Shown: piece after piece, positions 11,241-62,053 of the stretch
Layout of the letters: the number at the start of each line of letters is the position of its first letter
Numbering within the stretch: position 1 is the first letter of the stretch
Assembly (NCBI GenBank): GCA_003248865.1
Contig: QFPK01000005.1
Coordinates: 95,465-159,464 of the forward strand
Length of the DNA: 64,000 nucleotides
Source of the DNA: Sphingomonas sp.
GTDB taxonomy: Bacteria > Pseudomonadota > Alphaproteobacteria > Sphingomonadales > Sphingomonadaceae
Direction of reading: 5' to 3'
Program-made: the position numbers and the translations under genes
The notes under the pieces: generated by a model
The model's database searches: none
Told to the model about the DNA's origin: nothing
Seen by the model: only the letters and a program-made list of their open reading frames with translations

Positions 11241-12821
11241 TCAGTTCGTGATTTCCATCTCAAGCTGCGAGAAGTCCCCTCGTGCCAGGGCATCTCTGTC
11301 GATCGTCAATACAATCGTGCACAAGTCTCCCCAGATCCAGCCCTGCATCTTGCTTGTTGCCAGTTCCAGCAGGACTTCCGTATTCGTGTCAGGGCCGAGC
11401 GGCGTATCCACAAAGCCCAGCGGAGCATGTCCCATTGCGCCGTAAAAGCACTTGGCGTCCTGGTTCCAGATCGTTTCCATCCTGTTTCGCATTTCTGGGC
11501 GCAGACGGGCTGGATTTTGAGTGTAGGCGTTCAGGATATGCCAGTATAATTGTGATGAATATGGGCGCCACCACCAATTCTGAATAGATGATGATCTTTC
11601 GGGGACATCCCTTAGAAAATAATGAGAAATATTAAAGTTCTCATAATTATTTTCGTCTCTTCCGATTAATTCATAAGAATAATATTTAATATTATTTATT
11701 TTATTATAAAAAATTGATAACTTTTCTTCATTAAAATTCGTTGTATATGTAGAAATAAGTTTATTTAATTTTCTAAATTCATTCAAACTATTTTGAGATA
11801 TTTTCTTAGAGTTATTCAATAATTCAATATTCTCTGGATAAGAATTTACGGAATAAGATAGATGATTCATGATTTCTGCCTGTTTGGCAAAAAAATCCTC
11901 CATGATTTTCAACAGGGATGATAGGGAATTCTCGTCAAACGGCTGCATTTCCGGATTTTCGAGATTTGGCTGAAAGCCGCTCCACACATCGCCAATCTGA
12001 CCTGCGCCAAGGGAATCTTGCCGACCCTCTTCGATCTTCACCGGCCAGCGGGGAAGCTGCTCGTCCCCTGAGAAGGCGGCCTCCTTTTCATACCAACTGG
12101 CCCATGACGCACCAATCTGTCCCGGTCCGTTTTGCTCTTCGATTTCTCCCTTGAAATGAAGGGCTGCCGGCTCGGCGGTTTCGGGGTGAAGGAAAATCGC
12201 CAGCCAGCCTTCTCTTGGCCCGATCCCTGACCACAAACCCTTGGGAAGGCTTGCCAGATTGATCTGGCAGAGGAAACGCAGCGGCGTGTCGCCCATTTGC
12301 GGCCAGGGTGTTTCCCTGGGCAGTTTCGGCTTGCCGCCGAACCAGCTGTCCGTGTCGTCGAACCGGATCGGCACAATTGGTGTCAGCCTTGCGACGGGGC
12401 GATCCGCGTCCCACGGTCTTTGTTCAACGGCGAATGTTTCAAGCTGCCGTTGAATGAACTCGTTCCGGAGTTTCAGATCAGCTGCCGAGGGTTTCGCGTT
12501 GGTGGCCGAGCCGGGCTGGGAACCGACTGCATTTTGAGCCCTGTTTTGCGGAATGCTTCCAGCCCGCTGTGCGGCGTTGAGAAAGCGCATCATGCCCCAT
12601 GCCGCGACAGCGCCCATAACGAACAGCACTCCTGCGGCGAGCGGAGCGCCCAACGGACCTACCAGCGTGACATCAACGCCGGTTGCAATTGCGCGGAGGA
12701 GGGCCGCCTTAAACCCAGTCTTGCCGGGTTTCATCAAGACCGGGAAGCCATTGAGAAGGTCTAAGGCGATAATCCAGAAAAACAGCGCAGGCGATAAAAT
12801 CACAAAGATACGCTTTAACAT
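11241..12821 (-). CDS. membrane-anchored DUF1963 (YwqG-like) domain protein with an AT-rich in-frame insert
   Basis: Has N-terminal TM helices. DUF1963-like N-half (FGGKPKLP...LRFLCQINLASLP) and C-terminal WGD motif (GWIWGDLCTIVLTI) are present. ATG at 12821 is preceded by TGGAG, with an alternative GTG at 12845. GC is clearly lower than in neighbours. Confidence 0.65.
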   Translation of the reverse strand: MLKRIFVILSPALFFWIIALDLLNGFPVLMKPGKTGFKAALLRAIATGVDVTLVGPLGAPLAAGVLFVMGAVAAWGMMRFLNAAQRAGSIPQNRAQNAVGSQPGSATNAKPSAADLKLRNEFIQRQLETFAVEQRPWDADRPVARLTPIVPIRFDDTDSWFGGKPKLPRETPWPQMGDTPLRFLCQINLASLPKGLWSGIGPREGWLAIFLHPETAEPAALHFKGEIEEQNGPGQIGASWASWYEKEAAFSGDEQLPRWPVKIEEGRQDSLGAGQIGDVWSGFQPNLENPEMQPFDENSLSSLLKIMEDFFAKQAEIMNHLSYSVNSYPENIELLNNSKKISQNSLNEFRKLNKLISTYTTNFNEEKLSIFYNKINNIKYYSYELIGRDENNYENFNISHYFLRDVPERSSSIQNWWWRPYSSQLYWHILNAYTQNPARLRPEMRNRMETIWNQDAKCFYGAMGHAPLGFVDTPLGPDTNTEVLLELATSKMQGWIWGDLCTIVLTIDRDALARGDFSQLEMEITN

Positions 12822-12948
12822 TACAAAATTGCTCCAGTGACCCACTCTTTATTATGGCGCACGCTATGGAATTTAAATGTGATTGCAAGCAGGAAGGAGT
12901 TTTTTTCCGAGCAATGAGGTGTGGCCGTTTGCGCTTTGCACAGCCCTG

Positions 12949-46654: not shown

Positions 46655-47656
46655 CTACTTCCGCGCCCGGCTCACCACGCTCTCCGGCAGGTCCTCGCCG
46701 AACACGCGCTGATAATATTCCGCCACGATCCCGCGTTCGGATTCGTCGCAGCGGTTCAGGAAGCTGGTGCGGAAGGCGAAGCCGACATTTTTGAAGATGT
46801 CGGCGTTCTGCGCCCAGGTGATCACGGTGCGCGGGCTCATCACGGTGGAGATGTCGCCGGCGATGAAGCCTTGCCGCGTCATGTCGGCCACCTTCACCAT
46901 GGCTGCGATCACCTTGGGGTCGGTGTGCGGGCTCTTGGCGTGCACGATCGCGGTTTCGGTGTCGTTGGGCAGATAGTTCAGCGTGGTCACGATGGACCAG
47001 CGGTCCATCTGGCCCTGATTGATCTGCTGGGTGCCGTGATACAGGCCGGATGTATCGCCCAGGCCCACGGTGTTGGCGGTGGCGAATAGGCGGAACCATT
47101 TGTTCGGGCGGATCACCCGGTTCTGGTCCAGCAAGGTCAGCTTGCCTTCCACTTCCAGCACGCGCTGGATCACGAACATCACGTCCGGTCGGCCGGCGTC
47201 ATATTCGTCGAACACCAGTGCTGTCGGCGTCTGCAGCGCCCATGGCAGCAGGCCTTCGCGGAACTCCGTCACCTGCTTGCCGTCGCGCAGCACGATGGCG
47301 TCCTTGCCCACCAGATCGATACGGCTGATGTGGCTGTCCAGGTTGATGCGGATGCAGGGCCAGTTCAGCCGCGCCGCCACCTGCTCGATATGGGTGGATT
47401 TGCCGGTGCCGTGATAGCCCTGCACCATCACCCGCCGGTTGAAGGCGAAGCCCGCCAGGATCGCCAGCGTGGTGTCGGGATCGAACACATAGGTCGGGTC
47501 CAGATCGGGCACGCGCTCATCAGCCTTGCTGAACGCGGGGATCTTCATGTCGATGTCCACGCCGAACACCTCGCGCGCATCCACCTCGGTGTCGGGTGCA
47601 TCCATCAGGGTGGGGGCGTGGCGGTCGGTGTCAGAGGCGAGGTTCAGGCTGGTCAT
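46655..47656 (-). CDS. cobS: CobS-like AAA+ ATPase (aerobic cobaltochelatase small subunit family)
   Basis: 333 aa from MTSLNLASD with [32 protein letters not shown] and the NYLP..E pattern. ATG at 47656. Confidence 0.85.
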
Positions 47657-47963
47657 GGCGCGCAGCGTTGCCGCCCCCGCGCCCAAATCGCAAGGCCCGA
47701 ATCTGAGGGGGCGAAGCGGCGGAGACCCTGCCGGGAAAGCGGTTAACAAGCGGTAGAGCTGCCGTTTCGTCAAAATGATGTCGGAAAAATACAATCGTTA
47801 ACAGGTGGAATAGGCATAAGGTCGCTTTGCAGACAAACTTCGCCGTGCTGACAGTCACGGGTTCTGCACGGGGCAGTTGAGTTTCATTCATATTCACTGA
47901 CGGCGGAAGTTCCGGCGGAGGATGCCGGACTGTTGTCTGCTGCCGTCCAGCTTGGGGGTTGGT

Positions 47964-50900
47964 ATGAAAAGGTTGAAATCTACAACGGCCATTCTGGCCG
48001 TGGCCACTGCACTTGCCTGTTCTGGCACGGCGTCGGCCAATACGCTCTATTTTCAAATGAACCCGAACTATCAAGGCCTAGGGCAGCGACAGGTCTTCAT
48101 TTTCGGACAGGCCAATTCAACGGGAACGGTTACCGGCGGGAACGGCTTTTCGCAGGACTTCGATCTCGGTTCCGAAGGCTTCGCCATCATCACCTTGCCG
48201 AACGCGGACGAGCTGACGGCGAACGTCGTGCAGAGCCTCGGTTTTCGCGTGTCCTCAGAAGCGGCGGTCAGCGGCTACTTCCTCAGCCGCCAGTCGGCGA
48301 CCACCGACATGACCTACCTGATCGACGGGGAGCGGCTCGGCACCAACTATGTCGTCGCCGGCTACCAGAACATCTATCCCGACCAGATGTCGGTACAGGC
48401 CACGCAGGACGGCACCGTCGTCACCTTCACGCCGAAGAACAGCACCGCATTCCAGGTCACGCTGAACGCCGGCGAGACCTACATGTATCAGGCGAGCACC
48501 AACTTGTCCGGCAGCAGCATCGTCGCCGACAAGCCCATCGCCGTCTTCTCCGGCAACCAGTGCACCAACATTCCCACGGGCGTCAGCGCCTGCGACCACA
48601 TCGTGGAGCAGATGCCGTCGGTTGACCAATTGTCGTCCAGCTACCTGCTGGCACAGACGCCGCGCACGGGCACGCTCGGCAACGTGATGCGCGTGATCGC
48701 AACCGAGGATAACACCGAGGTCCGCGTGAACGGGGCCGTGGTGGCCACACTGGCCGCCAAGGGAGATTATTATGAAGGCCGGGTCGCCGGCGGGGTCGAA
48801 CTGGTCGCCTCTGCACCGGTTCTGGTCGCGCAGTATCTGATCGGGCAGGGGCAGGCCGGGGTCAACACCGACCCTGCGATGACCATCGTTCCCGGTTCCG
48901 ACCAGTGGTTGAAAAGCTATGTCTTCGCCACGCCGTCGGGCACTGCGAACTTCCCGACCGACTTCGTCTCGATCGTGATCCAGACCTCGTCGCTCGGCAG
49001 CCTCACCATCGACGGCGCGGTGGCGGACGGCACGCTATTCAACCCGCTGGGCTCCACGCTCTACAGCTACGGCAACATCGACGTGTCGGCCTACAGCGGA
49101 CCGTTCAGCATTTCGGCCGACACGCCCTTCCAGCTGCTGCTCTCGGGCTTTGACAGCTATGACAGCTACTTCACCTATGGCGGCGCCGCCTTCGCGCCGG
49201 GCGCTTCTCCGCCGCCCGACCCGGTGGATCCGCCGCCGCCCGGAATCGACGTCTATTGGGACGGCGACGGCGCGGGCAGCGCGGACAACGGCAACGTCGA
49301 TGGCGGCAGCGGCATCCTCACCGCAGACAGCGTGAACCTCACGCTCGAAAATGGCGCCACCAACAATGTGCTGCCTGAAAGCGCGACGGTCATTTTCGAA
49401 GGTACGCCGGGCACCGTCACCATTGATGATGTCGATGGCCCCCTGTCGTTCGCCGGGCTCCGGTTCGGAGTCGATGGCTATGTGCTGACCGGGGATAACT
49501 TTGCCCTCGCCGCAGAGGGAACGCCGGTCATCAACGTCGCAGGCGAAGTGGGCGAAGGCGGTACCACCGCCTATGTGGCCACTATCCAGAATGTGATCAC
49601 CGGCACGCAGGGTTTCGCCAAGACCGGCATCGGAACCCTCGTTCTCTCTGGGCTCAACACCTACAGCGGCGGCACCAATGTCCAGCAGGGCACGGTGATC
49701 GGCAATTCCACCACCTTCGGCACCGGCAGCGTCAACGTATCGTCTGGCGCCACAGTCATCTTCAACCAGACAACGGCGGGAAGTTTCTCGCAGGGGCTCG
49801 GTGGTGCGGGCAACTTCGTGAAGGCAGGTGCAGCGGCCCTGATCCTGGGTGGCGCCAACAGTTTCAGCGGCTCGGCGCTGGTGCAGCAGGGGCTGTTGCA
49901 GGTCAGCGGTTTCGTCGGCGGTGGCAGCTTCAGCGTGGCATCGGGCGGCATCCTGGGCGGCACGGGCACCGTGGGCTCCACGGTTGTGCAGTCCGGCGGT
50001 CGCGTGGCGCCGGGCGCGTCGATCGGCACGCTCACAGTGTCCGGCAATTTCACCCAGTCCACCGGCTCTTTCTACGATGTGGAACTGAACTCCCTCGGGG
50101 TGTCCGACCTGCTCGACATCAGCGGTACGGCCACCATCGAACCCGGCGCGACGCTCACCGTCACCAAGCTGGACACGGCGCAGACGCTGCTCGGCACCTC
50201 CTATCTGGTGCTGACTGCGGATGGCGGTCGCACCGGCACCTACAGCAACATCACCGGGAACACGCGGGTCTCGGCTTTCATCAACCTGGTGCCGGTCTAC
50301 ACTGCGACTGATGTCTGGCTCACCGCCAGCAAGACCCGCGCCTTCGCGGCCGCGGGCCTCACGCCCAACCAGATCGCTGCTGCCGGCGGGGCGGACCATG
50401 CCGGCAACGGCGCGCTCTACAATGCGATCCTCTACCTGCAGACGGATGCCGAAGCGCAAGCCGCCTTCGACTCCATCTCGGGTGAGATCCACGCCTCCCT
50501 GCGCGGCATCACGCTGGAAGACAGCCGCTTCGTCCGTGAGGCGATGATCAACCGCACCGTCGGAGAGCGAGAGCCCTCCAAGGCGCTGTGGATCCATGGC
50601 TATGGCAGCTGGGCGTCGATCAGCAACGACGGCAACGCCGCGCAGCTGAAGCGCGACATCGGCGGTTTCTTCCTCGGCGGCGAAATGGTCAGCGACAGCG
50701 GGCTGATCGTGGGTGCCGTCACCGGCTATGGCAAGGGTGATGTGCAGGTCGATGGCCGGCTGTCGTCGGCCGATACGTCCGATGCCTATCTGGGCGGCTA
50801 TGTCGGCTACAACGCCTTCGGCTTCAATGCCCGGGCGGGCCTCGCCTATCAGTGGCGCGATGTGAAGACGACGCGGCAGGTGGGTTTCACCGGCTTCAGC

Positions 50901-51380
50901 GACCGGACGACCGCGAAATATGATCTGAACACATTCCAGATCTTCGCGGATGCCGGTTACAAGCTGAACATCGGTCTGGAGCCGTTCTTCCAGCTCGCCT
51001 ATGTCGATGTCTCCAACGGCGGCTTCTCGGAATCGGGCGGCACTGCTGCGCTTGACGGCTCCGGCGGCGCCAACTTCTGGCTCACCCAGCTCGGCACCCG
51101 CTTCGGCTTCGGGCTTGGTACAGGGATTGCCCTGAACGGCTCCATCGGCTGGCGCCACCTCGCCGGAGGGGACCGCAACACGCCGGTTACGATGGCGTTC
51201 GGGGCTGGTCCGTCGTTCGATATCCTCGGCGCCTCGCTCGCCAAGGATTCCGCAGCACTCAGCCTCGCCGTCGGCGGCAGCATCGGCAAGAACCTCTCGA
51301 TCGACCTTGGCTACAGCGGGGTCGCCGGAAAAGGCTTCTCCGACCATGGCGTCCGGGGCTCGCTGACCTTCCGCTTCTAG
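47964..51380 (+). CDS. autotransporter outer-membrane protein with large passenger
   Basis: Signal peptide MKRLKSTTAILAVATALACSGTASA. Repeated 'GTLVLSG.N.YSGGT.V..G' autotransporter-associated beta-strand repeats. C-terminal beta-barrel ends ...GSLTFRF. Confidence 0.85.
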   Translation: MKRLKSTTAILAVATALACSGTASANTLYFQMNPNYQGLGQRQVFIFGQANSTGTVTGGNGFSQDFDLGSEGFAIITLPNADELTANVVQSLGFRVSSEAAVSGYFLSRQSATTDMTYLIDGERLGTNYVVAGYQNIYPDQMSVQATQDGTVVTFTPKNSTAFQVTLNAGETYMYQASTNLSGSSIVADKPIAVFSGNQCTNIPTGVSACDHIVEQMPSVDQLSSSYLLAQTPRTGTLGNVMRVIATEDNTEVRVNGAVVATLAAKGDYYEGRVAGGVELVASAPVLVAQYLIGQGQAGVNTDPAMTIVPGSDQWLKSYVFATPSGTANFPTDFVSIVIQTSSLGSLTIDGAVADGTLFNPLGSTLYSYGNIDVSAYSGPFSISADTPFQLLLSGFDSYDSYFTYGGAAFAPGASPPPDPVDPPPPGIDVYWDGDGAGSADNGNVDGGSGILTADSVNLTLENGATNNVLPESATVIFEGTPGTVTIDDVDGPLSFAGLRFGVDGYVLTGDNFALAAEGTPVINVAGEVGEGGTTAYVATIQNVITGTQGFAKTGIGTLVLSGLNTYSGGTNVQQGTVIGNSTTFGTGSVNVSSGATVIFNQTTAGSFSQGLGGAGNFVKAGAAALILGGANSFSGSALVQQGLLQVSGFVGGGSFSVASGGILGGTGTVGSTVVQSGGRVAPGASIGTLTVSGNFTQSTGSFYDVELNSLGVSDLLDISGTATIEPGATLTVTKLDTAQTLLGTSYLVLTADGGRTGTYSNITGNTRVSAFINLVPVYTATDVWLTASKTRAFAAAGLTPNQIAAAGGADHAGNGALYNAILYLQTDAEAQAAFDSISGEIHASLRGITLEDSRFVREAMINRTVGEREPSKALWIHGYGSWASISNDGNAAQLKRDIGGFFLGGEMVSDSGLIVGAVTGYGKGDVQVDGRLSSADTSDAYLGGYVGYNAFGFNARAGLAYQWRDVKTTRQVGFTGFSDRTTAKYDLNTFQIFADAGYKLNIGLEPFFQLAYVDVSNGGFSESGGTAALDGSGGANFWLTQLGTRFGFGLGTGIALNGSIGWRHLAGGDRNTPVTMAFGAGPSFDILGASLAKDSAALSLAVGGSIGKNLSIDLGYSGVAGKGFSDHGVRGSLTFRF

Positions 51381-51578
51381 GGGCCGCATCCGGCGGCTTG
51401 TTTCCAATAGCCGCTTCCAGCGGCCGGCAACTTCCGGGCCCACACCCCAAGCGGGGCCAGGGGGCAAGAGCCAGCATCGCGACGGCGTTGCTGGCTCTTC
51501 GCACCTCCGGACACTGTCACGCCGGATGCCCCCACATTGAATGATTGTGCCGCCCGCCCGCCTCGCTAGATTTCGCCG

Positions 51579-52751
51579 ATGCGCCTCAGCGATTGCCACA
51601 ATGTGCAGGATTTCAGGCGGCTGGCGAAGCAGCGGCTACCGGGCCCCGTATTCCACTATATCGACGGCGCCGCCGACGACGAGATCACCAAGGCCCGCAA
51701 CAGCAGCGCCTTCGACGATGTCGATCTGCTGCCCAATGTGCTGGCGGGCGTGGCCGATGTGGACATGTCCGTCACCGTGCTCGGCCGCAAGCTGGCGATG
51801 CCGCTGTTCCTCAGCCCCACCGCGCTGCAACGGCTGTTCCACTGGCAGGGGGAACGCGCGGTCGGCCGCGCCGCCTCGGCCTTCGGCACCTATTTCGGCG
51901 TCTCCAGCCTCTCCACCGTCAGCCTGGAGGATATCGGCCGCACCGTCAGCGGCCCCAAGATGCTCCAGCTCTATGTCCACAAGGACGAGGGGCTGAACCG
52001 ATCGCTGGTGCAGCGCGCGCAGGGCGCCGGTTTCGATTGCCTCACCCTCACCGTGGACACCATCGTGGGCGGCAACCGCGAACGCTGCCTGCGCACGGGC
52101 TTCACCAGCCCGCCGCGCTTCACCGCCTCCAGCATCTGGGAATATGCGACCAAGCCCGGCTGGGCGCTCAACTATCTGTTCCGCGAACGCTTTTCCCTTC
52201 CCAACCTCGAAGGCCATCTGCCGGAAGGCAGCCAAAAATCCATGTCGGTCGCGGATTATTTCACCCGGATGCTGGACCAGACTCTGGACTGGAAACGCGC
52301 AGAGGCGATCCGCACCAGCTGGGGCGACCGCCCCTTCTGCCTGAAAGGCGTGATGAGCGTGGAGGACGCGAAGCGCGCCATCGACATCGGCGCCACCGCC
52401 ATCATGGTCTCCAACCACGGCGGCCGCCAGCTCGACGGCAGCCGCGCCCCGTTCGACCAGATCGCCGAACTCGCGGACGCAGTGGGCGACCGCATCGAGA
52501 TCATCTGCGACGGCGGCATCCAGCGCGGCACCCATGTACTGAAGGCGCTGGCGGCGGGCGCGCGGGCCTGCTCCGGCGGCCGTCTCTATCTCTATGCGCT
52601 GGGCGCGGCCGGCGAACCGGGCGTTCGCCGTATCCTCGGCAGGCTGCAGGATGAGATCGAGCGCGACATGAAGCTGATGGGCATCACCCGCCTCGACCAG
52701 CTGAACCGCAGCAAGCTCCGCTCCAGACGAGGACATGTCAAAAATATTTGA
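51579..52751 (+). CDS. FMN-dependent alpha-hydroxy-acid oxidase/dehydrogenase (L-lactate dehydrogenase-like)
   Basis: 390 aa with VFHYIDGAADDE, KGV.SVEDA, SNHGGRQLD and DGGI.RG motifs. Confidence 0.85.
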   Translation: MRLSDCHNVQDFRRLAKQRLPGPVFHYIDGAADDEITKARNSSAFDDVDLLPNVLAGVADVDMSVTVLGRKLAMPLFLSPTALQRLFHWQGERAVGRAASAFGTYFGVSSLSTVSLEDIGRTVSGPKMLQLYVHKDEGLNRSLVQRAQGAGFDCLTLTVDTIVGGNRERCLRTGFTSPPRFTASSIWEYATKPGWALNYLFRERFSLPNLEGHLPEGSQKSMSVADYFTRMLDQTLDWKRAEAIRTSWGDRPFCLKGVMSVEDAKRAIDIGATAIMVSNHGGRQLDGSRAPFDQIAELADAVGDRIEIICDGGIQRGTHVLKALAAGARACSGGRLYLYALGAAGEPGVRRILGRLQDEIERDMKLMGITRLDQLNRSKLRSRRGHVKNI

Positions 52752-52798
52752 CATGCGCTGACCCTTCGCCCATTTCGTGTCGAAGATTTTCGACACGA
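52735..52798 (+). promoter_or_regulatory. pair of related perfect palindromes (candidate operators) upstream of the membrane-protein/XRE pair
   Basis: ATGTCAAA-AATA-TTTGACAT (52735-52754, overlaps the upstream stop codon) and TCGTGTCGAA-GATT-TTCGACACGA (52775-52798). Shared core TGTCRAA-N4-TTYGACA. Confidence 0.5.
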
Positions 52799-52810
52799 AG
52801 GGATTCGCCT

Positions 52811-53248
52811 ATGTTCCCCCCAGACGCCTCGTTCCGCGAGAAATCAGCGCTCGCCATGCTCATTCTCTGGCTGCTCGTCACCGCCTTCTACATCGTGGAA
52901 ATGGCGCCCTGGCGCTGGACGATGCACAGCATCCACGCCCCCATGAAGCCCTTCGTGGTCGCCACCATCGCCATCATCATCGGCTCGATCGTCGTGCAGG
53001 CGGTGCTGGGCGCCCGCGATCCGAAAGAGGCTTCCGCCCCCGCCGACGAACGGGAACGCCCCATCCTCGACAAGGCCAGCTCATGGTCCGGCACGGTGCT
53101 GGGCGTCGGCTGTGTCGCCTCAATCCTGCACTATCTCCAGCACGGCAGCGGAGACCTGCTGTTCCACACCATCTTCCTCAGCCTGATCCTGTCCGCGATG
53201 TCCGAGTTCGCCTTCCAGCTCTGGCTGTTCCGGCGTGCTTCGCGATGA
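52811..53248 (+). CDS. small 4-TM membrane protein (DUF2178-like)
   Basis: 145 aa. ATG at 52811 is preceded by GAAGGGA. Has a central DERE-containing loop. ATGA overlap with the downstream HTH gene. Confidence 0.55.
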   Translation: MFPPDASFREKSALAMLILWLLVTAFYIVEMAPWRWTMHSIHAPMKPFVVATIAIIIGSIVVQAVLGARDPKEASAPADERERPILDKASSWSGTVLGVGCVASILHYLQHGSGDLLFHTIFLSLILSAMSEFAFQLWLFRRASR

Positions 53249-53460
53249 CGAAGCGCCCCCCCATCACCAACCGGGTGAAGGAATATCGCGAGCGTCACGG
53301 CGGCCTCACCCAGGCCCAGCTGGGCGAGGCGGTCGGCGTCACCCGCCACACCATCATCGCCATCGAACAGGGCCATTATTCCCCCAGCCTGGAAACTGCC
53401 TTCCGCATCGCCCGCCTGTTTGGGGCCGGGGTGGAAGATCTGTTCGGCTGGGACGGATAG
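53245..53460 (+). CDS. XRE-family helix-turn-helix transcriptional regulator (71 aa)
   Basis: RVKEYRERHGGLTQAQLGEAVGVTRHTIIAIEQGHYSPSLETAFRIARLFG. Confidence 0.85.
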   Translation: MTKRPPITNRVKEYRERHGGLTQAQLGEAVGVTRHTIIAIEQGHYSPSLETAFRIARLFGAGVEDLFGWDG

Positions 53461-53526
53461 GGCTGGCGAAGCCGCAGCCGCCCGGCTAACCCTTGCCCCC
53501 TGCAAAACAGGGCCACGAAAAGGGAA

Positions 53527-54729
53527 GTGCCGATGCGCAAGAGAGTCTGGATACCGGCCCTGCTGCTGATCCTGCTGGCCGCCGGTTTCGGCTTCCTGCC
53601 CGGCTGGCTGGAAGGCCGCACCAACAAGGTGGACGGCCTGCCGCTGATCCCGGTCTCGGCCGAGGCCAAGGCGCTGCACCGCAGCCTGCGCATCGTCGAT
53701 CTCCACTCCGACACGCTGCTGTGGAACCGCAATATCCTGCACCGCGCCAATCGCGGTCACGAGGATCTGCCCCGGCTGCAAGAAGGCAATGTCGCGCTCC
53801 AGCTGTTCTCCTCCGTCACCAAGTCCCCGCGCGGGCAGAATTACGATGGCAACAGCGGCGACACCGACAATATCACTCCGCTCGTCATCGCCCAGCTGCA
53901 GCCGCTGCGCACCTGGTCTTCCCTGCTGCAACGCTCGCTGTTCCACGCCGAAAAGCTGGATACGGCCGTCGATGCTTCGGGCGGCCAACTGAAGAAGGTG
54001 GAGGACGCCGCTTCGCTTGATGCGCTGCTCGCGGCCCGCGCCGGCGCCGGAACCGACAAGGCGGGCGCAGGCGGCGGCGGCCCGGTCGGCGCCATGCTCA
54101 CCATCGAAGGTCTGCAGAATCTGGAAGGGGAGGCGGGCAATCTCGATGCGCTTTACGCCGCCGGCTTCCGCATGGCGGGCCTCACCCATTTCTTCGACAA
54201 TGAACTGGCCGGCTCCATGCACGGCATCTCCAAGGCCGGGCTCACCCCGCTCGGCCGCGAGGTGGTGCGCCGCATGGAGGACAAGGGCATGATCGTCGAT
54301 GTCGCCCACCTCTCCCACGCCGGGCTCGCGGAACTGATCCGCATCGCGCGCCGCCCGCTCGTCTCCAGCCATGGCGGGGTGCAGGCGATCTGCACCACCA
54401 ACCGCAACCTGTCTGACGAAGAGATCCGGGGAATCGCCGCCACCGGCGGCCTGATCGGCATCGGCTATTGGGACGGCGCCATCTGCGGCACCGATCCGCG
54501 CATGGCCGCGAAATCGATGAAGCATGTGCGCGATCTGGTCGGTATCCAGCATGTCGCGCTGGGCTCGGATTACGACGGCGCCACCACCGTCCGCTTCGAT
54601 ACCAGCCATCTGGAACAGATTACCCAGGCGCTGGTGGATGAAGGCTTCACCCGGGAGGAAATCCGCGACGTGATGGGCGAGAACGCCCTGCGTGTGCTGC
54701 GCGCCGGAATCGAACCGCTAGCGCCCTGA
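53527..54729 (+). CDS. membrane-anchored M19-family dipeptidase
   Basis: N-terminal TM with VDLHSDTL, a (HF)FDNE-like region, DVAHLS, SSHGG and LGSDYDG motifs. GTG start at 53527, ATG two codons later. Confidence 0.8.
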   Translation: MPMRKRVWIPALLLILLAAGFGFLPGWLEGRTNKVDGLPLIPVSAEAKALHRSLRIVDLHSDTLLWNRNILHRANRGHEDLPRLQEGNVALQLFSSVTKSPRGQNYDGNSGDTDNITPLVIAQLQPLRTWSSLLQRSLFHAEKLDTAVDASGGQLKKVEDAASLDALLAARAGAGTDKAGAGGGGPVGAMLTIEGLQNLEGEAGNLDALYAAGFRMAGLTHFFDNELAGSMHGISKAGLTPLGREVVRRMEDKGMIVDVAHLSHAGLAELIRIARRPLVSSHGGVQAICTTNRNLSDEEIRGIAATGGLIGIGYWDGAICGTDPRMAAKSMKHVRDLVGIQHVALGSDYDGATTVRFDTSHLEQITQALVDEGFTREEIRDVMGENALRVLRAGIEPLAP

Positions 54730-55320
54730 GGGCGACCGCCCGCCGGCGCTTTCGGAGCCCGGCCGCCCGAAGGTCGTGCTGGCTTCCAGATGCGTATAGG
54801 CCTCGGTCAGCGCAGTGAAACGCGCCTCATGCTCCCGGCTGCCCTTGTTGGCATCCGGGTGATAGCGCCGTGCCAGCTTGCGATAGACCGCCTTCACCTC
54901 GGCCAGCGTCGCCGTCTCGGGCAGGCCCAGCTTCGACAGCGCCTGCCGGTCCTCCCGGCTCAGCGGGCTTTGCGCTTTCGCCTGTGCGGTGGTTTTCCAG
55001 CGCAGCACGCCCAGCGCATCGTCCACCCGCATCTCGCCGTTGGCGGCATTGTGGGCGAAGGCGCGGGTTTCCCGATCCCATGTCGGATAGGGCGTCTGCG
55101 CGTCCCAGATGGCGTCCTCGCTCATCCCCTCGAAGTAATTCCACTTCGCGTTGAACTCGCGCACATGTTCCAGGCAGAAATATTGCCACTCCGGCGGCCC
55201 GGAAGGCGCGGCGAAGCTGCTGCCCGGCCGCCGCACCGGCGCACGATAATCCCCCGCTTCGTCGCACCCTTCGTGCGCGCAGGCCTGATTTCCCGGAAAT
55301 GCGCCGCCCTTCGCCTTCAT
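54718..55320 (-). CDS. J-domain (DnaJ-like) protein
   Basis: C-terminal J domain with VKAVYRKLARRYHPDANKG. N-terminal Cys/His region (CAHEGC...FCLEHV). ATG at 55320. Confidence 0.8.
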   Translation of the reverse strand: MKAKGGAFPGNQACAHEGCDEAGDYRAPVRRPGSSFAAPSGPPEWQYFCLEHVREFNAKWNYFEGMSEDAIWDAQTPYPTWDRETRAFAHNAANGEMRVDDALGVLRWKTTAQAKAQSPLSREDRQALSKLGLPETATLAEVKAVYRKLARRYHPDANKGSREHEARFTALTEAYTHLEASTTFGRPGSESAGGRSPSGR

Positions 55321-55382
55321 GCCCGTTCCCTGAACGCCAAAACCCTCCATATAGGGGCTGTATCAGCTTGCGGGAGGTCGTG

Positions 55383-55649
55383 ATGGGTGCCGTGAAAGAG
55401 GAAATCGAACTCCGCCTGCGGGAGAATTTCTCGCCCACGCATCTGGAGGTGATCGACGACAGCGCGAAACACGCCGGCCATGCCGGGCACGACCCGCGCG
55501 GCGAAAGCCATTTCACCGTCGAGATCGTCTCCGTCCGGTTCGAGGGGCTGAGCCGCGTCGAACGCCAGCGCGCCGTCAACCGAGCGTTGGCCGATCTGCT
55601 GGTGGAACGGGTGCACGCGCTGGCGATCCGGGCGTCAACCCCAGGCTGA
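55383..55649 (+). CDS. bolA: BolA-family protein
   Basis: 88 aa: LEVIDDSAKHAGHAG...HFTVEIVS..F.G.SRVERQRAVN.AL. ATG at 55383 is preceded by GGGAGG. Confidence 0.85.
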   Translation: MGAVKEEIELRLRENFSPTHLEVIDDSAKHAGHAGHDPRGESHFTVEIVSVRFEGLSRVERQRAVNRALADLLVERVHALAIRASTPG

Positions 55650-55658
55650 CGGCCGCCC

Positions 55659-56618
55659 ATGGCCGCAGGGCAGCCGCTCTGCTACGCTCCGCCCGTGAGT
55701 ATCCGTAACCACGGCACAGGTCATGCCCTTGCGTCACGCGAAATGGCCATCCTGCTTGCCGTGGCCGATGCCGGCAGCATCCGCCGCGCCGCTTCCGATC
55801 TCGGCCTGACCCCGGCCGCCGTCAGCAAGACGGTGCGCGGCGTCGAGGCGCGTCTGGGCGCCGCCTTGTTCGAACGCACCGCTGGCGGCATGGCCGTCGC
55901 CGAGGCCGCCGAGCCGCTGCTGAAATCCGGCCGCAAGGCGCTGATGGAATTGTCCGCCGCAGAGGCCGGGTTCCGAAGCCGGTCGGGCACCATCGCCGGG
56001 CAGATCCGCATCGGGGCGGGCCCTTTCCCCGCCGCCTCCGTCGCCCGCATCCTGGTGCCGGAAGCCAAGCGGCGGCTGCCCGACGTCCGCCTCTCGGTGG
56101 AACTCGGAACCGCCGAGGAACTGCTGGCGGGCCTCCAGCGCGGCCGGCTCGATCTCGCCATCTGCCATCTGGAGGATGTGGCGCTGCCGCCGGGCTTCCG
56201 CGCCCATGTGATCCAGCGGCTGCACTCGGTGATCATGGCCCGCCCCGATCATCCGCTCGCCGGCGTCGCCGCGCTGCCGCCCGCCCGCCTCGCGGGCTAT
56301 GGCCTCGCCTGCTTCCACCCCTACGGCCGCTTCCTGCGCTGGTATCACGCTGAAGTTGGGGCAGAGGCAGAGATCGGCTTCATCGGCTCTGATTTCGACC
56401 TTCTGGCCGAGGCCGTCGCCCAGTCAGACCTGCTGCTGCTCTCCTCGCGCAGCCTCGCCGTGGTGCTCGCCCGCTCGCACGGCCTCGCCGCGCTGGACAT
56501 CGCCTGGGCGGGCTTCTCGCACGACGTGAACATCATTCAGCCCGAACCGCCGGCCTCTCCCGCCGCAGTCGCCGTGATCGGCCTGATGGACGAAACCCTG
56601 CGCCAGTGGGAAGCCTGA
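55659..56618 (+). CDS. LysR-family transcriptional regulator
   Basis: HTH segment LLAVADAGSIRRAASDLGLTPAAVSKTVRGVE plus a substrate-binding domain. The true start may be GTG 55695 or ATG 55743. Confidence 0.8.
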   Translation: MAAGQPLCYAPPVSIRNHGTGHALASREMAILLAVADAGSIRRAASDLGLTPAAVSKTVRGVEARLGAALFERTAGGMAVAEAAEPLLKSGRKALMELSAAEAGFRSRSGTIAGQIRIGAGPFPAASVARILVPEAKRRLPDVRLSVELGTAEELLAGLQRGRLDLAICHLEDVALPPGFRAHVIQRLHSVIMARPDHPLAGVAALPPARLAGYGLACFHPYGRFLRWYHAEVGAEAEIGFIGSDFDLLAEAVAQSDLLLLSSRSLAVVLARSHGLAALDIAWAGFSHDVNIIQPEPPASPAAVAVIGLMDETLRQWEA

Positions 56619-56625
56619 GCCCGGC

Positions 56626-56642
56626 GTCAACCAAAGGTTGAC
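56626..56642. promoter_or_regulatory. palindrome GTCAACC-AAA-GGTTGAC, candidate LysR-type binding site upstream of the sulfatase gene
   Basis: Perfect 7-bp arms, 8 nt after the LysR stop and ~90 nt before the sulfatase start. Confidence 0.3.
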
Positions 56643-56734
56643 ACTGACGCAACCGCGACAGGCCTATTCCCCGCTTCCCACCCCCGGGTAGCTGGCCGGC
56701 GCGACGCAAGCCGCGCGCAGCAGGGGAGGAATGC

Positions 56735-58870
56735 ATGAAAGCTTCAACGACAGTCCGGGTCCGTCGTCTGTCCGGCGCCCGCGTCGCCCTGCTGCTGATG
56801 GGCGGCGGCGTCGCCGCTCTGCTGGCCGGCGCGGCGCTCGCCCAGTCCGCCACAAACCCGCTGCTCGACCCCAACGCCGCCAAGGGCCTGCATTTTCACC
56901 CGCTGGGCCAGCCGGCCTCCGCGCCCACCATCGCGCTCCGCGATCAGGAAAAGGCCGGGCTCCCCTTCGCCGACGAGCGCGACTTCGCCGAGGCGAAGCG
57001 CGGCTTCCTGAAGACCCCGCCCTACAAGAAGATCATGGCCGATGCCGGCCACATCGCGTGGGACATGGAAAGCTACCAATGGCTGCTGCAGGGCAAGGAT
57101 TTCCCCAGCATCCACCCCTCGCTGCAGCGTCAGGCCATCCTCAACATGGGCTACGGCCTCTATGAAGTGCTGCCCGGCAAGATCTATCAGGTCCGCGGTT
57201 ATGATCTTGCCAACATCACCTTCATCAGGGGCGACAAGGGCTGGATCGTCTTCGATCCGCTCACCTCGAAGGAGCCGGCCCGCGCCGCGCTGAAGTTCAT
57301 CAACGACACGCTGGGTTATCGCCCCGTGACGGGCGTTGTCTATTCGCACAGCCATATCGATCACTTCGGCGGCGTGCGCGGCGTGGTGGACGAAGCCGAT
57401 GTCCGTTCCGGCAAGGTGCCCATCGTCGCGCCGGAAAACTTCCTTCAGGAAGCCGTCTCGGAAAATGTCTTCGCAGGCAACGCGATGACGCGCCGCAGCC
57501 GCATCCAATATGCGACCATCCTGCGCCGCAGCCCCTTCGGCCATGTCGACCAGTCCATCGGCAAGAATGTCTCGGCCGGTCTGCCGGGCCTGATCGCCCC
57601 CACCGTCACCATAGACCAGCCGTTCCAGGAACTGACGATCGACGGCGTGAAGATGGTGTTCCAGCACACGCCCGATACCGAGGCGCCTGCCGGCATGAAC
57701 ACCTGGTTCCCCGATATGAAGGCCTTCTGGGCGGGCGAGAATGTCACCGCCACCATCCACAACATCTACACGCTGCGCGGCGCCCCCGTCCGCAACGCGC
57801 TGAACTGGTCGAAGGAAATCAACAGCGCCATCCACCACTTCCCGGATGCCGAAGTGCTGTTCGCCTCCCACAGCTGGCCGCGCTGGGGCAACGCCCGCAT
57901 CATGGAAGTGCTGCGCGCCCAGCGCGATCTCTATGCCAACATGCACTCGCAGGCGCTGCACCTCGCCAACCAGGGCGTCACCATCAACCAGATCCAGAAT
58001 GTGTATGAGGTGCCCAAAAGCCTGCAGGCGCAATGGGCCGCCCGCAGCTATCATGGCGCGGTGCGAAACAATGTGCGCGCCATCATCAACCGCTATCTCG
58101 GCTTCTGGGATGGCAACCCGGCCAACCTCAACCCGCTGTCCCCGGCAGACATCGCGCCCCTCTATGTGGACATGATGGGCGGCTCCGCCCCGATCCTCGC
58201 CAAGGGCCGCGAACTGAACGCCGCCGGCCGCTACCGCGAATCCGGGGAAATCCTCTCCCGCCTCGTCTTCGCCCAGCCCGAAAACCAGCCCGCCCGCAAC
58301 CTGCTGGCAGACGCCTTCGAACAACTCGGCTACCAGAGCGAGAGCACCAGCTTCCGAAATTCCTATCTCCAGCTGGCGGCCGAGCTGCGCTCCGGCATCG
58401 CCGAAGGCACCGCCGCCAACACCAGCAGCCCGGACGTGATCCGCGCCCTGACGACCGGCCAGTGGCTCGATTTCCTCGCCATCAGCATGGACAGCACCAA
58501 GGCAGACGGCATGCGCTGGACGATCAACCTGATCACACCCGACAATGGCGAAAAATATCTGGTGGAAATGTCCAACGCCACGCTCACCAACATCCAGGGC
58601 TTCACCAGCCCCACGGCAGACCTCAGCATCACCCTCAATCGCACCGATCTGGATGCCGTGATGATGGGCGCCAGAAGCTTCGAGCAGCTCGAAACAGAGG
58701 GCAAGGTGAAGTTCGAAGGCAGCCGCGAGCCCTTCAGGCAACTCGCCTCCATCCTCACCATCTTCAGTCCGGATTTCGAGATCTTCCCGAAAACCGCCAA
58801 CGCCCGGCCCGTCCCCTCCAGCCTGAAGCCGTTCCAGCTCCCGCCGGAGGCGCTCACCGTTCCGGAATAA
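56735..58870 (+). CDS. secreted MBL-fold alkyl/aryl-sulfatase (SdsA1/BDS1-like)
   Basis: 711 aa with a signal peptide, the metallo-beta-lactamase motif YSHSHIDHFGG, an alkyl-sulfatase dimerisation region and an SCP2-like C-terminus. Confidence 0.85.
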   Translation: MKASTTVRVRRLSGARVALLLMGGGVAALLAGAALAQSATNPLLDPNAAKGLHFHPLGQPASAPTIALRDQEKAGLPFADERDFAEAKRGFLKTPPYKKIMADAGHIAWDMESYQWLLQGKDFPSIHPSLQRQAILNMGYGLYEVLPGKIYQVRGYDLANITFIRGDKGWIVFDPLTSKEPARAALKFINDTLGYRPVTGVVYSHSHIDHFGGVRGVVDEADVRSGKVPIVAPENFLQEAVSENVFAGNAMTRRSRIQYATILRRSPFGHVDQSIGKNVSAGLPGLIAPTVTIDQPFQELTIDGVKMVFQHTPDTEAPAGMNTWFPDMKAFWAGENVTATIHNIYTLRGAPVRNALNWSKEINSAIHHFPDAEVLFASHSWPRWGNARIMEVLRAQRDLYANMHSQALHLANQGVTINQIQNVYEVPKSLQAQWAARSYHGAVRNNVRAIINRYLGFWDGNPANLNPLSPADIAPLYVDMMGGSAPILAKGRELNAAGRYRESGEILSRLVFAQPENQPARNLLADAFEQLGYQSESTSFRNSYLQLAAELRSGIAEGTAANTSSPDVIRALTTGQWLDFLAISMDSTKADGMRWTINLITPDNGEKYLVEMSNATLTNIQGFTSPTADLSITLNRTDLDAVMMGARSFEQLETEGKVKFEGSREPFRQLASILTIFSPDFEIFPKTANARPVPSSLKPFQLPPEALTVPE

Positions 58871-59503: not shown

Positions 59504-61348
59504 ATGGCCATCGATCCCAACCCGCTGGAAGATTTCCGCCAGGCGCTTGCCGCCGGCATGCGTGCCCTCGGCCGCCACCCTGAGTTCGAGCTGGCCTATA
59601 CGGCCGACAGGCCTGCCTGCCTTGGCGATCAGGCCCGGGTGCCGCAGCCGTCGCGCAGCCTCACGCCCGAACAGGCGGCGGAAGCGCGGGGCTGGGCTGA
59701 CAGCTTTGCGCTGCGTACTCGCCTGCACGATCCGCGCGCTCATGCGAAGGTGGATGTCGGCCCCGGCCTCCCGCGGGAGATGCTGAACGCGGCCGAGCAG
59801 GCCCGTATCGAGGCGCTGGGCGGGCGCGACATGGCCGGCGTGGCCCTGAACCTGCGCCGCATGCTGGATCTCCGCATGAAGACGGATCCGATCGCGCGCG
59901 CCCGCACGCCGGACGAAGTGCCGCTGGCGACCGCCGTCGGCCTGATCGTGCGCGAGCGGCTCACGGGGGAGCCCGTGCCGGATGCGGCAGCCAATGGCGT
60001 GGACATGGTCCGCAGTCGGCTGGAGGAAGAGGCCGGGGTTCATCTCGACCAGCTTGCGGCCAATGTCGACGATCAGACGGCCTTCGCGGACGCCTTCCGC
60101 CGCGTGTTGGCCGATCTCGGCCTCGCTGACGATCCGGACAAGCCCGAGGACGACGAGCAGCAGGACAGCGAGGACGAGGAAGAGCAGGACAGCCAGGGCG
60201 AGGACGAGGGCGACGACAGCTCCGAAACCCAGACTTCGCAGCCCGCCGCCGAAAGCCGCAGCGAGGAACAGGAAGGCGGCGAATCCGAGGGCGACACGCA
60301 GGAGGTCGAATCCGACGCGGAGATGTCGTCGGATGCGGAGCCTGGCGACGAGGGCGAGGACGGCATGATGCCCTGGCGCCCGAACCTGCCGGATTCCAAG
60401 CTGCCGCCCGATTTCACCTACCGCGCCTGGACGACCGAGTATGACGAGACCGTCACGGCCGAAGAACTGTGCGACGCAGAGGAGCTGGCGCGGCTGCGCG
60501 GCTATCTCGACCAGCAGCTGGTCAGCCTGCAGGGCGCGGTCACCAAGCTTGCCAACCGGTTGCAGCGGCGGCTGATGGCACAGCAGAACCGCAGCTGGGA
60601 TTTCGATCAGGAGGAAGGCATCCTGGACCCTGCGCGGCTGACGCGGGTGGTGGTGCAGCCCGATCATGCGCTCAGCTACAAGGTGGAGCGCGACACCGAC
60701 TTCCGCGACACGGTGGTGACGCTGCTCATCGACAATTCGGGCTCCATGCGCGGCCGCCCTATCTCCATCGCGGCGATTTCGGCCGACATTCTTGCCCGCA
60801 CGCTGGAACGCTGCGCGGTGAAGACGGAGATTTTGGGCTTCACCACCCGCGCCTGGAAGGGCGGGCAATCGCGCGAGAAATGGCTGGCGAGCGGCCGCCC
60901 GGCCAAGCCCGGCCGCCTGAACGACCTCCGCCACATCATCTACAAGCAGGCGGATGCGCCATGGCGCCGGGCCCGGCGCAATCTGGGCCTGATGATGCGC
61001 GAGGGGCTGCTGAAGGAAAATATCGACGGCGAGGCGCTGCTGTGGGCGCACAACCGGCTGATGGCCCGGCGCGAGGACCGCCGCATCCTGATGGTGATCT
61101 CAGACGGCGCGCCGGTGGACGACAGCACGCTGTCGGTGAACTCGGGCAATTATCTGGAGCGGCACCTGCGGCAGGTGATCGGCTGGATCGAGGGCAAGAG
61201 CCCGGTGGAGCTGATCGCCATCGGCATCGGCCATGACGTGACGCGCTATTACAGCCGTGCGGTGACGATCATGGATGCGGAGCAGCTGGGCGGGGCCATC
61301 GTTGACCAGCTGGCGGCGCTGTTCGAGGAGGACAAGCGGGGGCGGTAG
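59504..61348 (+). CDS. cobT: CobT-like protein (vWA domain, acidic central region)
   Basis: 614 aa with an N-terminal CobT pattern, a long D/E-rich linker and a C-terminal vWA/MIDAS domain ([11 protein letters not shown]). Confidence 0.85.
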
Positions 61349-61430
61349 GGGACTCCCGCACTACCGTCACCCCGGGCTTGACCCGGGGTCCCGCTGGCTC
61401 TGCGCAACGTGCGGTTTTGCGTGGAACAAT

Positions 61431-61483
61431 TCCTACAAATCCTACACGTCCTACAGCCAAGCTGTTGAAGTTGCAGTGTAGGA
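61431..61483 (+). repeat. three 9-bp-phased TCCTACA direct repeats plus one inverted copy
   Basis: TCCTACA at 61431, 61440 and 61449. TGTAGGA at 61477-61483. CGTCCTACA/TGTAGGACG can form a 9-bp stem. Confidence 0.7.
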
Positions 61484-61486
61484 CGA

Positions 61487-61502
61487 TGTTCCACGTGGAA
61501 CA
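61487..61502. promoter_or_regulatory. parS-like perfect 16-bp palindrome TGTTCCACGTGGAACA
   Basis: Perfect palindrome differing from canonical parS (TGTTTCACGTGAAACA) only at one symmetric position pair. Extra half-sites are GCGTGGAACA (61419-61428) and TGTTCCACGC (61521-61530). Confidence 0.55.
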
Positions 61503-61580
61503 ACCAATGTGGTTATCCGATGTTCCACGCGGCCGGCGGCCAGGCCGCCGAGTCCGCTGGGAGAAGGTAAGGGAAGAAAG

Positions 61581-61605
61581 AAAAAGCGCAGGCAAAGCCT
61601 GCGCC
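61581..61605 (-). terminator. rho-independent terminator of the glycine-zipper gene
   Basis: The minus strand reads GGCGCAGGC-tttg-CCTGCGC followed by TTTTTCTTTCTT. Confidence 0.7.
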
Positions 61606-61697: not shown

Positions 61698-61994
61698 TCA
61701 GCACTTCTTCGCATTCTTTCCAATCACCGCACCCGTCAACGCCCCGGCACCCGCCACCAGCGCCGTCTCGCCCAGGTTCCCGCCGGCAATCGCCGCAACC
61801 GTCCCGGCAGATGCCGCACCCACGATCGCCGCGCGCTCCTTGGATTTCTTCTTGGCGCGCTTGCAGGCCTCATAGCTCTCATAATGATGCCCGTCATATT
61901 CCCAGACGGTCTGCTTCTTTTCCTTCGCCGCCAGCGGCAGGGCAGGGCCGGTCACCATGGCAACCGCCACCAGTCCAAGGGTCAGAACTCGCAT
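61698..61994 (-). CDS. small secreted glycine-zipper protein
   Basis: 98 aa with signal peptide MRVLTLGLVAVAMVTGPALPLAA and a C-terminal AAIVGAASAGTVAAIAGGNLGETALVAGAGALTGAVIG glycine zipper. ATG at 61994 is preceded by AAGGAGA. Confidence 0.65.
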   Translation of the reverse strand: MRVLTLGLVAVAMVTGPALPLAAKEKKQTVWEYDGHHYESYEACKRAKKKSKERAAIVGAASAGTVAAIAGGNLGETALVAGAGALTGAVIGKNAKKC

Positions 61995-62053
61995 CGTCTT
62001 TCTCCTTTCGAACGCCATCCTGATCATAACCGCCTGAATAGCCGATTGCTCCC

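Follow-up and report, generated by a model that had tools for sequence, protein, structure and literature searches.

We identified a perfect 16-bp palindrome, TGTTCCACGTGGAACA, between the cobT gene and a small convergent gene in a 64-kb stretch of Sphingomonas sp. DNA (the whole analyzed stretch is hereafter called the window), and this palindrome is probably a genuine parS, that is, a single, isolated and recently gained site outside the parAB cluster, onto which the ParB of the host would load. The sequence-only reading of the window had put an outlying chromosomal parS foremost among its options, and this option is favored by the sequence identity of the site, its rarity away from replication origins and the absence of parAB from the window. 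The cobT gap, its bordering genes and the 112-bp module that contains the palindrome (61419-61530) include the following features:

59504-61348, plus strand: cobT, the upstream context gene, with its 3' end towards the module
61352-61396, unstranded: REP-like hairpin repeat GTCACCCCGGGCTTGACCCGGGGTCC, just 3' of the cobT stop codon
61400-61418, plus strand: terminator-like hairpin with a trailing TTTT, 3' of cobT, at the left edge of the module
61419-61428, unstranded: left flanking half-site GCGTGGAACA, a copy of the right half of the palindrome that includes the half-parS heptamer GTGGAAC
61431-61455, plus strand: three direct TCCTACA units (at 61431, 61440 and 61449) with an exact 9-bp period
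61477-61485, minus strand: inverted TCCTACA copy TGTAGGACG, paired as a 9-bp inverted repeat with the third unit of the array (61447-61455) across a spacer of 21 nt
61487-61502, unstranded: perfect 16-bp parS palindrome TGTTCCACGTGGAACA, predicted ParB nucleation/loading site
61521-61530, unstranded: right flanking half-site TGTTCCACGC, a copy of the left half with the same CGA left flank as the palindrome
61585-61605, minus strand: hairpin with a T-run that resembles an intrinsic terminator of the gene for the 109-aa protein, near the point where homology to relatives resumes (61577)
61698-62027, minus strand: gene for a 109-aa G/A-rich small protein, the downstream context gene, with its 3' end towards the module

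The palindrome had been described as perfect and as one symmetric pair away from the canonical TGTTTCACGTGAAACA; both statements are borne out by the sequence, the differing positions being 5 and 12, and the site matches the TGTTNCACGTGNAACA pattern with 0 mismatches. There is one exact occurrence of TGTTCCACGTGGAACA in the window (61487-61502), and the expectation for an exact 16-mer in 64 kb is, by arithmetic, approximately 1.5e-5. With up to three mismatches allowed, two matches were found in the window against 0.16 expected. The half-site 9-mer CGTGGAACA is present five times in the window (0.39 expected; none of the 100 shuffles reached five), and four of these five copies are located within the 110 bp between 61420 and 61529. 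The frequency of the motif in other genomes is likewise not that of a random sequence: the non-origin sphingomonad DNA that we searched (160 cobT loci, 2.25 Mb) contains zero perfect copies and two near matches, one with a single mismatch and one with two. Only the absence of conservation, described below, speaks for a chance origin of the palindrome, that is, for an occurrence without biological meaning; the counts of the 16-mer and the 9-mer already refute such a reading, the lack of perfect sites in the comparator DNA also stands against it, and its probability is close to nil. The open reading frames that begin with MFHVE on both strands were confirmed to be the palindrome in translation.

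For comparison with native parS, we used three sphingomonad origin regions with the gene order hemE-rho-mnmE-mnmG-rsmG-parA-parB, 102 kb in total, two of which (L081 and L082) came from a tblastn search of PLSDB and the third (L275) from a ParB look-up. Their origin regions contain the following sites:

L081, S. parapaucimobilis: TGTTCCACGTGGAACA twice and TGTTTCACGTGGAACA once
L082, Sphingopyxis indica: TGTTCCACGTGGAACA twice and TGTTCCACGTGAAACG once
L275, S. faeni: TGTTCCACGTGGAACA twice

Altogether, these loci hold six perfect TGTTCCACGTGGAACA copies and two one-base variants, all within about 8 kb upstream of parA. The native sites are fixed in position, with one parS directly 3' of the mnmE stop codon (16609 in L081, 15609 in L082 and 6719 in L275) and one inside the 3' end of rsmG (19050, 18930 and 9152, respectively), where it encodes ..FHVE... 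The parAB-proximal sites of sphingomonads are therefore not a different sequence, which had been raised as a potential objection, but, at the level of the order, exactly TGTTCCACGTGGAACA. The sphingomonad ParBs have the canonical domain set of ParB_N, HTH_ParB and ParB_C and share about 50% identity with the Caulobacter ParB. The PLSDB "plasmids" L081 (NZ_CP155751.1) and L082 (NZ_CP076395.1) carry a chromosomal origin region and probably represent fragments of a chromosome or co-integrates. One parS in L081 is followed, at a distance of 9 bp, by a perfect DnaA box, TGTGGATAA.

Beyond the sphingomonads, TGTTCCACGTGGAACA is identical to parS2 and parS3 of P. aeruginosa (PMC4368675, Table 1) and to the P. 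putida consensus (PMC7022226, Table 1), and the likeness to a Myxococcus site named in the sequence-only reading holds for the M. xanthus consensus save the last base (PMC7022226, Table 1). In P. aeruginosa, parS is bound by ParB at any chromosomal placement (PMC5098823). Given this identity with native and published parS, the palindrome qualifies as a sequence-competent ParB loading site and is not merely parS-like; the identity with the native parS is established at the order level, and we infer it for this organism.

In the mechanism that we propose, a dimer of the host chromosomal ParB would bind the 16-bp parS through its helix-turn-helix domains, after which the parS-bound ParB would close into a CTP-bound clamp and slide onto the adjacent DNA. 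The parS copy would be situated in an untranscribed gap on which the 3' ends of cobT and of the minus-strand small gene converge, and the flanking half-sites could add weak ParB contacts, as is the case for half-parS sites. Judging from the sequence, ParB would almost certainly bind and load at 61487-61502, and whether the site has a role in segregation or SMC loading, or is simply tolerated, depends on its distance to oriC.

The module has a defined order, from the right-half copy through the TCCTACA array and the full palindrome to the left-half copy. The two outer 10-mers, which had been reported to be inverted relative to each other, form a perfect 10-nt inverted pair (GCGTGGAACA / TGTTCCACGC). 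The direct repeat reported for this region was found as CGATGTTCCACG(T/C)GG at 61484 and 61518, and a second direct repeat, CGTGGAACAA, is present at 61420 and 61494. The half copies each keep 1-3 nt of the outer flank of their parent half (…AACAA and CGATGTT…), which points to two local duplications and not to independent evolution, so that the flanking half-sites presumably arose by local duplication. A native parS copied together with its flanks was considered as the source of the whole module and rejected, the likeness to native loci ending at 16-18 nt.

Both flanking sites include GTTCCAC, one of the two half-parS heptamers (GTTCCAC / GTTTCAC) known for the ParBs of P. aeruginosa and other bacteria, and GTTCCAC half-sites are bound by several ParBs weakly and without spreading (PMC7022226, section 4). 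Whereas known half-parS are scattered singly across the genome, the two copies in the module are arranged symmetrically around a full parS, no more than 70 bp away from it, and have extended flanks in common with it, and this symmetry and sharing again indicate local duplication. In the window as a whole, we counted 25 half-parS heptamers against 9.0 ± 2.9 expected, and nine GTTYCAC are found within 6 kb (50079-56103), the densest 6.1-kb stretch among 139 comparator loci containing six. A reading of the half-sites at 50-56 kb as a conserved ParB zone found no support, with only three of the nine common to S. hominis, which is what about 75% nucleotide identity predicts.

The TCCTACA repeats, a family that was absent from the sequence-only reading, are located within the same 112-bp module; their heptamers are perfect, and the 2-nt spacers between the heptamers vary. 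In 2.33 Mb of sphingomonad DNA, TCCTACA has a background of 0.037 per kb, with no pair within 60 bp. A scan of viral contigs for the 9-bp TCCTACA array produced 112 matches, which are presumed to be in-frame coding repeats. Neither a known motif nor a partner gene could be assigned to the repeats at 61431-61485. To our knowledge, such an array has no role in ParB biology, and its presence counts against an explanation of the module by parS only. The single-stranded form of the module folds more stably than shuffled sequences (z = -3.6), as expected from its nested inverted repeats. The Rfam search found no match to the module at the gathering or a permissive threshold, the best overlapping hit (E = 0.13) being far below the gathering score; the gathering search of the whole window returned no family and missed even the tRNA-Leu(GAG).

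The module is placed between two convergent terminator-like hairpins, and no promoter-like (sigma-70-like) site was detected in the gap. It thus occupies a transcriptional dead zone between gene 3' ends, which argues against a role as an operator or promoter. The recQ gene lies 26 bp upstream of the gene for the 109-aa protein, on the same strand, and the homolog of this protein in S. hominis (L001) is 72% identical. The "glycine-zipper" label that the protein had been given is consistent with its G/A-rich C-terminus and finds no counterpart among Pfam matches, of which there are none. The REP-like repeat at 61352-61396 has matches of 33-44 nt with 93-100% identity in Sphingobium, Sphingomonas and Novosphingobium replicons and marks the cobT gap as a hot spot of repeat insertion.

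Among the housekeeping genes of the window are thyA, purEK, alaS, aspS, rpsI, ctaA, psd/pssA, pccB, rarA, cobS and recQ. The earlier statement that the window lacks parA and parB was confirmed by a tblastn search for ParB and by Pfam searches of 39 of the 41 called genes, and the same searches identified no integrase, transposase or other partition gene. Also, mnmEG, rsmG and hemE were not found in the window, so that the parS is outside the canonical parAB-adjacent cluster. Upstream, a LysR regulator and an alkyl sulfatase gene are inserted 5' of cobT (55659-58870), an insertion that S. neustonicus (L276) shares and S. hominis lacks. Elsewhere in the window, the leftmost 1 kb contains no clear genes, the minus-strand tRNA-Leu(GAG) gene (975-1122) has an AT-rich junction at its 3' end that is a likely attachment point of a genomic island, and the strongly AT-rich DUF1963 gene at 11241-12845, with a local GC content down to about 0.3 compared to 65% for the genome, was probably acquired horizontally.

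Comparison of CobT sequences places the organism in the order Sphingomonadales, family Sphingosinicellaceae, with Sandaracinobacter neustonicus (93% identity) as the nearest named relative, followed by Sandaracinobacteroides hominis (86%). A metagenome fragment from ERZ1023384, whose contig stops 18 bp past cobT, encodes a CobT with 98% identity, and the best match in a separate metagenome scan for closer cobT loci had 73% identity. The site is not conserved in syntenic regions, a test suggested by the sequence-only reading: about 165 cobT loci from relatives all lack it, including those of S. neustonicus (93% CobT identity), S. hominis and L002, and two complete or near-complete chromosomes of the clade are without parS at the cobT locus. 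The genes of S. neustonicus follow the same order (LysR, alkyl sulfatase, cobT, gap, small gene and recQ), and the 600-bp gap contains unrelated REP-like repeats, with neither the half-site nor TCCTACA. In S. hominis and in L278, a 90% relative, an alpha/beta-hydrolase gene lies between cobT and the small gene, and the homology between the window and S. hominis restarts at 61577. Because the site is missing from every relative examined, a recent gain is indicated; as far as these alignments tell, the module is a recent acquisition in a hypervariable gap that postdates the split from S. neustonicus. The lack of conservation also means that there is no evidence of purifying selection on the site.

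The position of the locus on the chromosome can be approached from several sides. In S. faeni, cobT is located 43 kb from parB on one contig, so that a position of cobT near the origin is possible in this order. This distance is, however, not transferable to the window, because the ancestral adjacency of cobS and cobT is broken in the clade to which the window belongs; the window cobS is 12 kb from cobT and inverted, and the two genes are adjacent and co-oriented in most Sphingomonadales. In members of the clade, cobT is found at about 0.71 Mb in the record of a 3.36-Mb chromosome and at about 0.78 Mb in that of a 2.85-Mb chromosome. Origin markers are absent for 61 kb on one side of the site and, according to synteny with relatives, for at least 10 kb on the other. 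Both the GC skew and the per-gene GC3 skew turn from plus to minus at about 31-35 kb, approximately 29 kb from the parS, where genes converge. The polarity of this sign change is the one expected at a replication terminus or where an inversion ends, and a neighborhood with a skew change of terminus polarity would be odd for a working centromere. The GC3 skew of cobT (59504-61348) is +0.03 and that of cobS (46655-47794) is +0.12, with values of -0.2 to -0.3 for their neighbors and -0.35 for cobT in S. hominis and S. saxicola. We detected no dif site in the window with E. coli, generic/alphaproteobacterial and N. aromaticivorans models or with a scan for AT-rich 28-mers, and dif may lie outside the window. 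An AT-rich patch at 975-1036 was considered as a dif candidate and found unconvincing, since it abuts the tRNA-Leu gene and looks like an island junction.

Several other explanations of the module deserve consideration. The 112-bp module might be a foreign or mobile relic, either a MITE-like element bounded by its 10-bp terminal inverted repeats or a remnant of the partition locus of a plasmid or ICE, in which the TCCTACA iterons and the palindrome once served the element's own proteins and which the host ParB may bind without any selected role. Its restriction to this lineage, with other contents filling the same gap in relatives, the adjoining REP-like element, the perfect 10-nt terminal inverted repeats with further inverted repeats nested within them and the pronounced folding of the single strand all fit such an origin, and the tandem heptamers with an inverted copy resemble the centromere arrays of ribbon-helix-helix proteins. 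However, the flanks, TTTT and GGCC, show no target-site duplication, and neither the window nor 2.3 Mb of DNA from relatives contains a second copy of the module, so that a MITE is not supported by the available data. Moreover, a BLAST search of 72,556 plasmid and 50,697 phage records gave only chance GC-rich matches and nothing similar to the module, the window has no integrase, transposase or partition gene, and the palindrome is the own parS of the host order. We therefore consider a mobile relic unlikely.

An operator for an unrelated factor, recognizing either the CACGTG-centered palindrome or TCCTACA, or a promoter or structured RNA, such as an ECF/EcfG-type promoter with a GGAAC -35 element, could explain the crowding of several inverted and direct repeats within about 110 bp. 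The EcfG consensus is GGAAC-N16-17-CGTT, and a GGAAC-N16-CGAT sequence that follows the palindrome differs from it by one base. Against such a function stand the location of the gap, which is bordered by two gene 3' ends, has a terminator on either side and contains no sigma-70-like promoter, the lack of exact GGAAC-N16-17-CGTT matches in the window, the lack of an Rfam match and the lack of anything conserved in relatives, which together make it very improbable; the sequence-only reading had offered an unrelated regulator as one option, and the position between two 3' ends likewise makes this option unlikely. By eye or by pattern, none of an EcfG promoter, a LexA box (GTTC-N7-GTTC), a DnaA box and an IHF site fits. 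The further suggestion of a site for a Noc-like paralog finds no support: Noc is a Firmicutes protein, the consensus of its binding site (NBS) is of the ATTTCCCGGGAAAT type, and the palindrome has the parS sequence, with the core CACGTG and not CCCGGG. Finally, the module could be a newborn ectopic centromere far from oriC, possibly within about 30 kb of the terminus, in which the perfect site is no older than the last few percent of sequence divergence and the symmetric half-sites and TCCTACA repeats recruit a second DNA-binding protein that modulates or insulates ParB loading; taken as a whole, this scenario is a rather long shot. If true, it would offer a natural experiment on an origin-distal parS that is tolerated or exploited, for example, as an additional point for the loading of SMC or for anchoring.

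The preferred reading, a recently gained chromosomal parS, can be set against known systems. Sites of this type are normally few, clustered beside parAB and evolutionarily fixed in position. The site in the window shares with the parS of chromosomal ParABS systems (consensus tGTTNCACGTGAAACa) the same 16 bp and the perfect palindrome, is extremely rare elsewhere and, like some native sites, is intergenic. In contrast to native parS, it is outside the parAB/mnmEG/rsmG cluster, stands alone instead of in a cluster of two or three, and is not conserved even in a relative with 93% identity, whereas the native sites are fixed in position. Another parallel is with the secondary, origin-distal parS, such as P. 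aeruginosa parS5-10 and the outlying sites of B. subtilis, which are also of parS type and located away from the partition operon. However, the six P. aeruginosa outliers parS5-10 each deviate at one or two positions (PMC4368675, Table 1), whereas the site in the window is perfect, and ParB should therefore load on it as it does at native sites. A further likeness, in the interleaving of two repeat families within about 110 bp, is to the composite centromeres of plasmids and phages. P1 parS consists of box A and box B, and heptad arrays are bound by ribbon-helix-helix proteins. Unlike these centromeres, the module has no cognate genes nearby and no similarity to plasmids or phages, so that the likeness is architectural only.

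To conclude, the palindrome is an ordinary, well-known kind of site in a somewhat unusual setting. Misplaced parS disturbs segregation in Caulobacter and P. aeruginosa, and a perfect parS that was gained very recently at another chromosomal location illustrates how sites of this kind come into being. Since ParB probably loads at any perfect site, the copy could create a second ParB/SMC loading point. Binding of a partner protein to the TCCTACA array, if true, would raise the significance of the module. If the site is far from the origin, it would be a naturally tolerated and informative outlier, and if it lies in the origin domain, it would be one more member of the centromere set.
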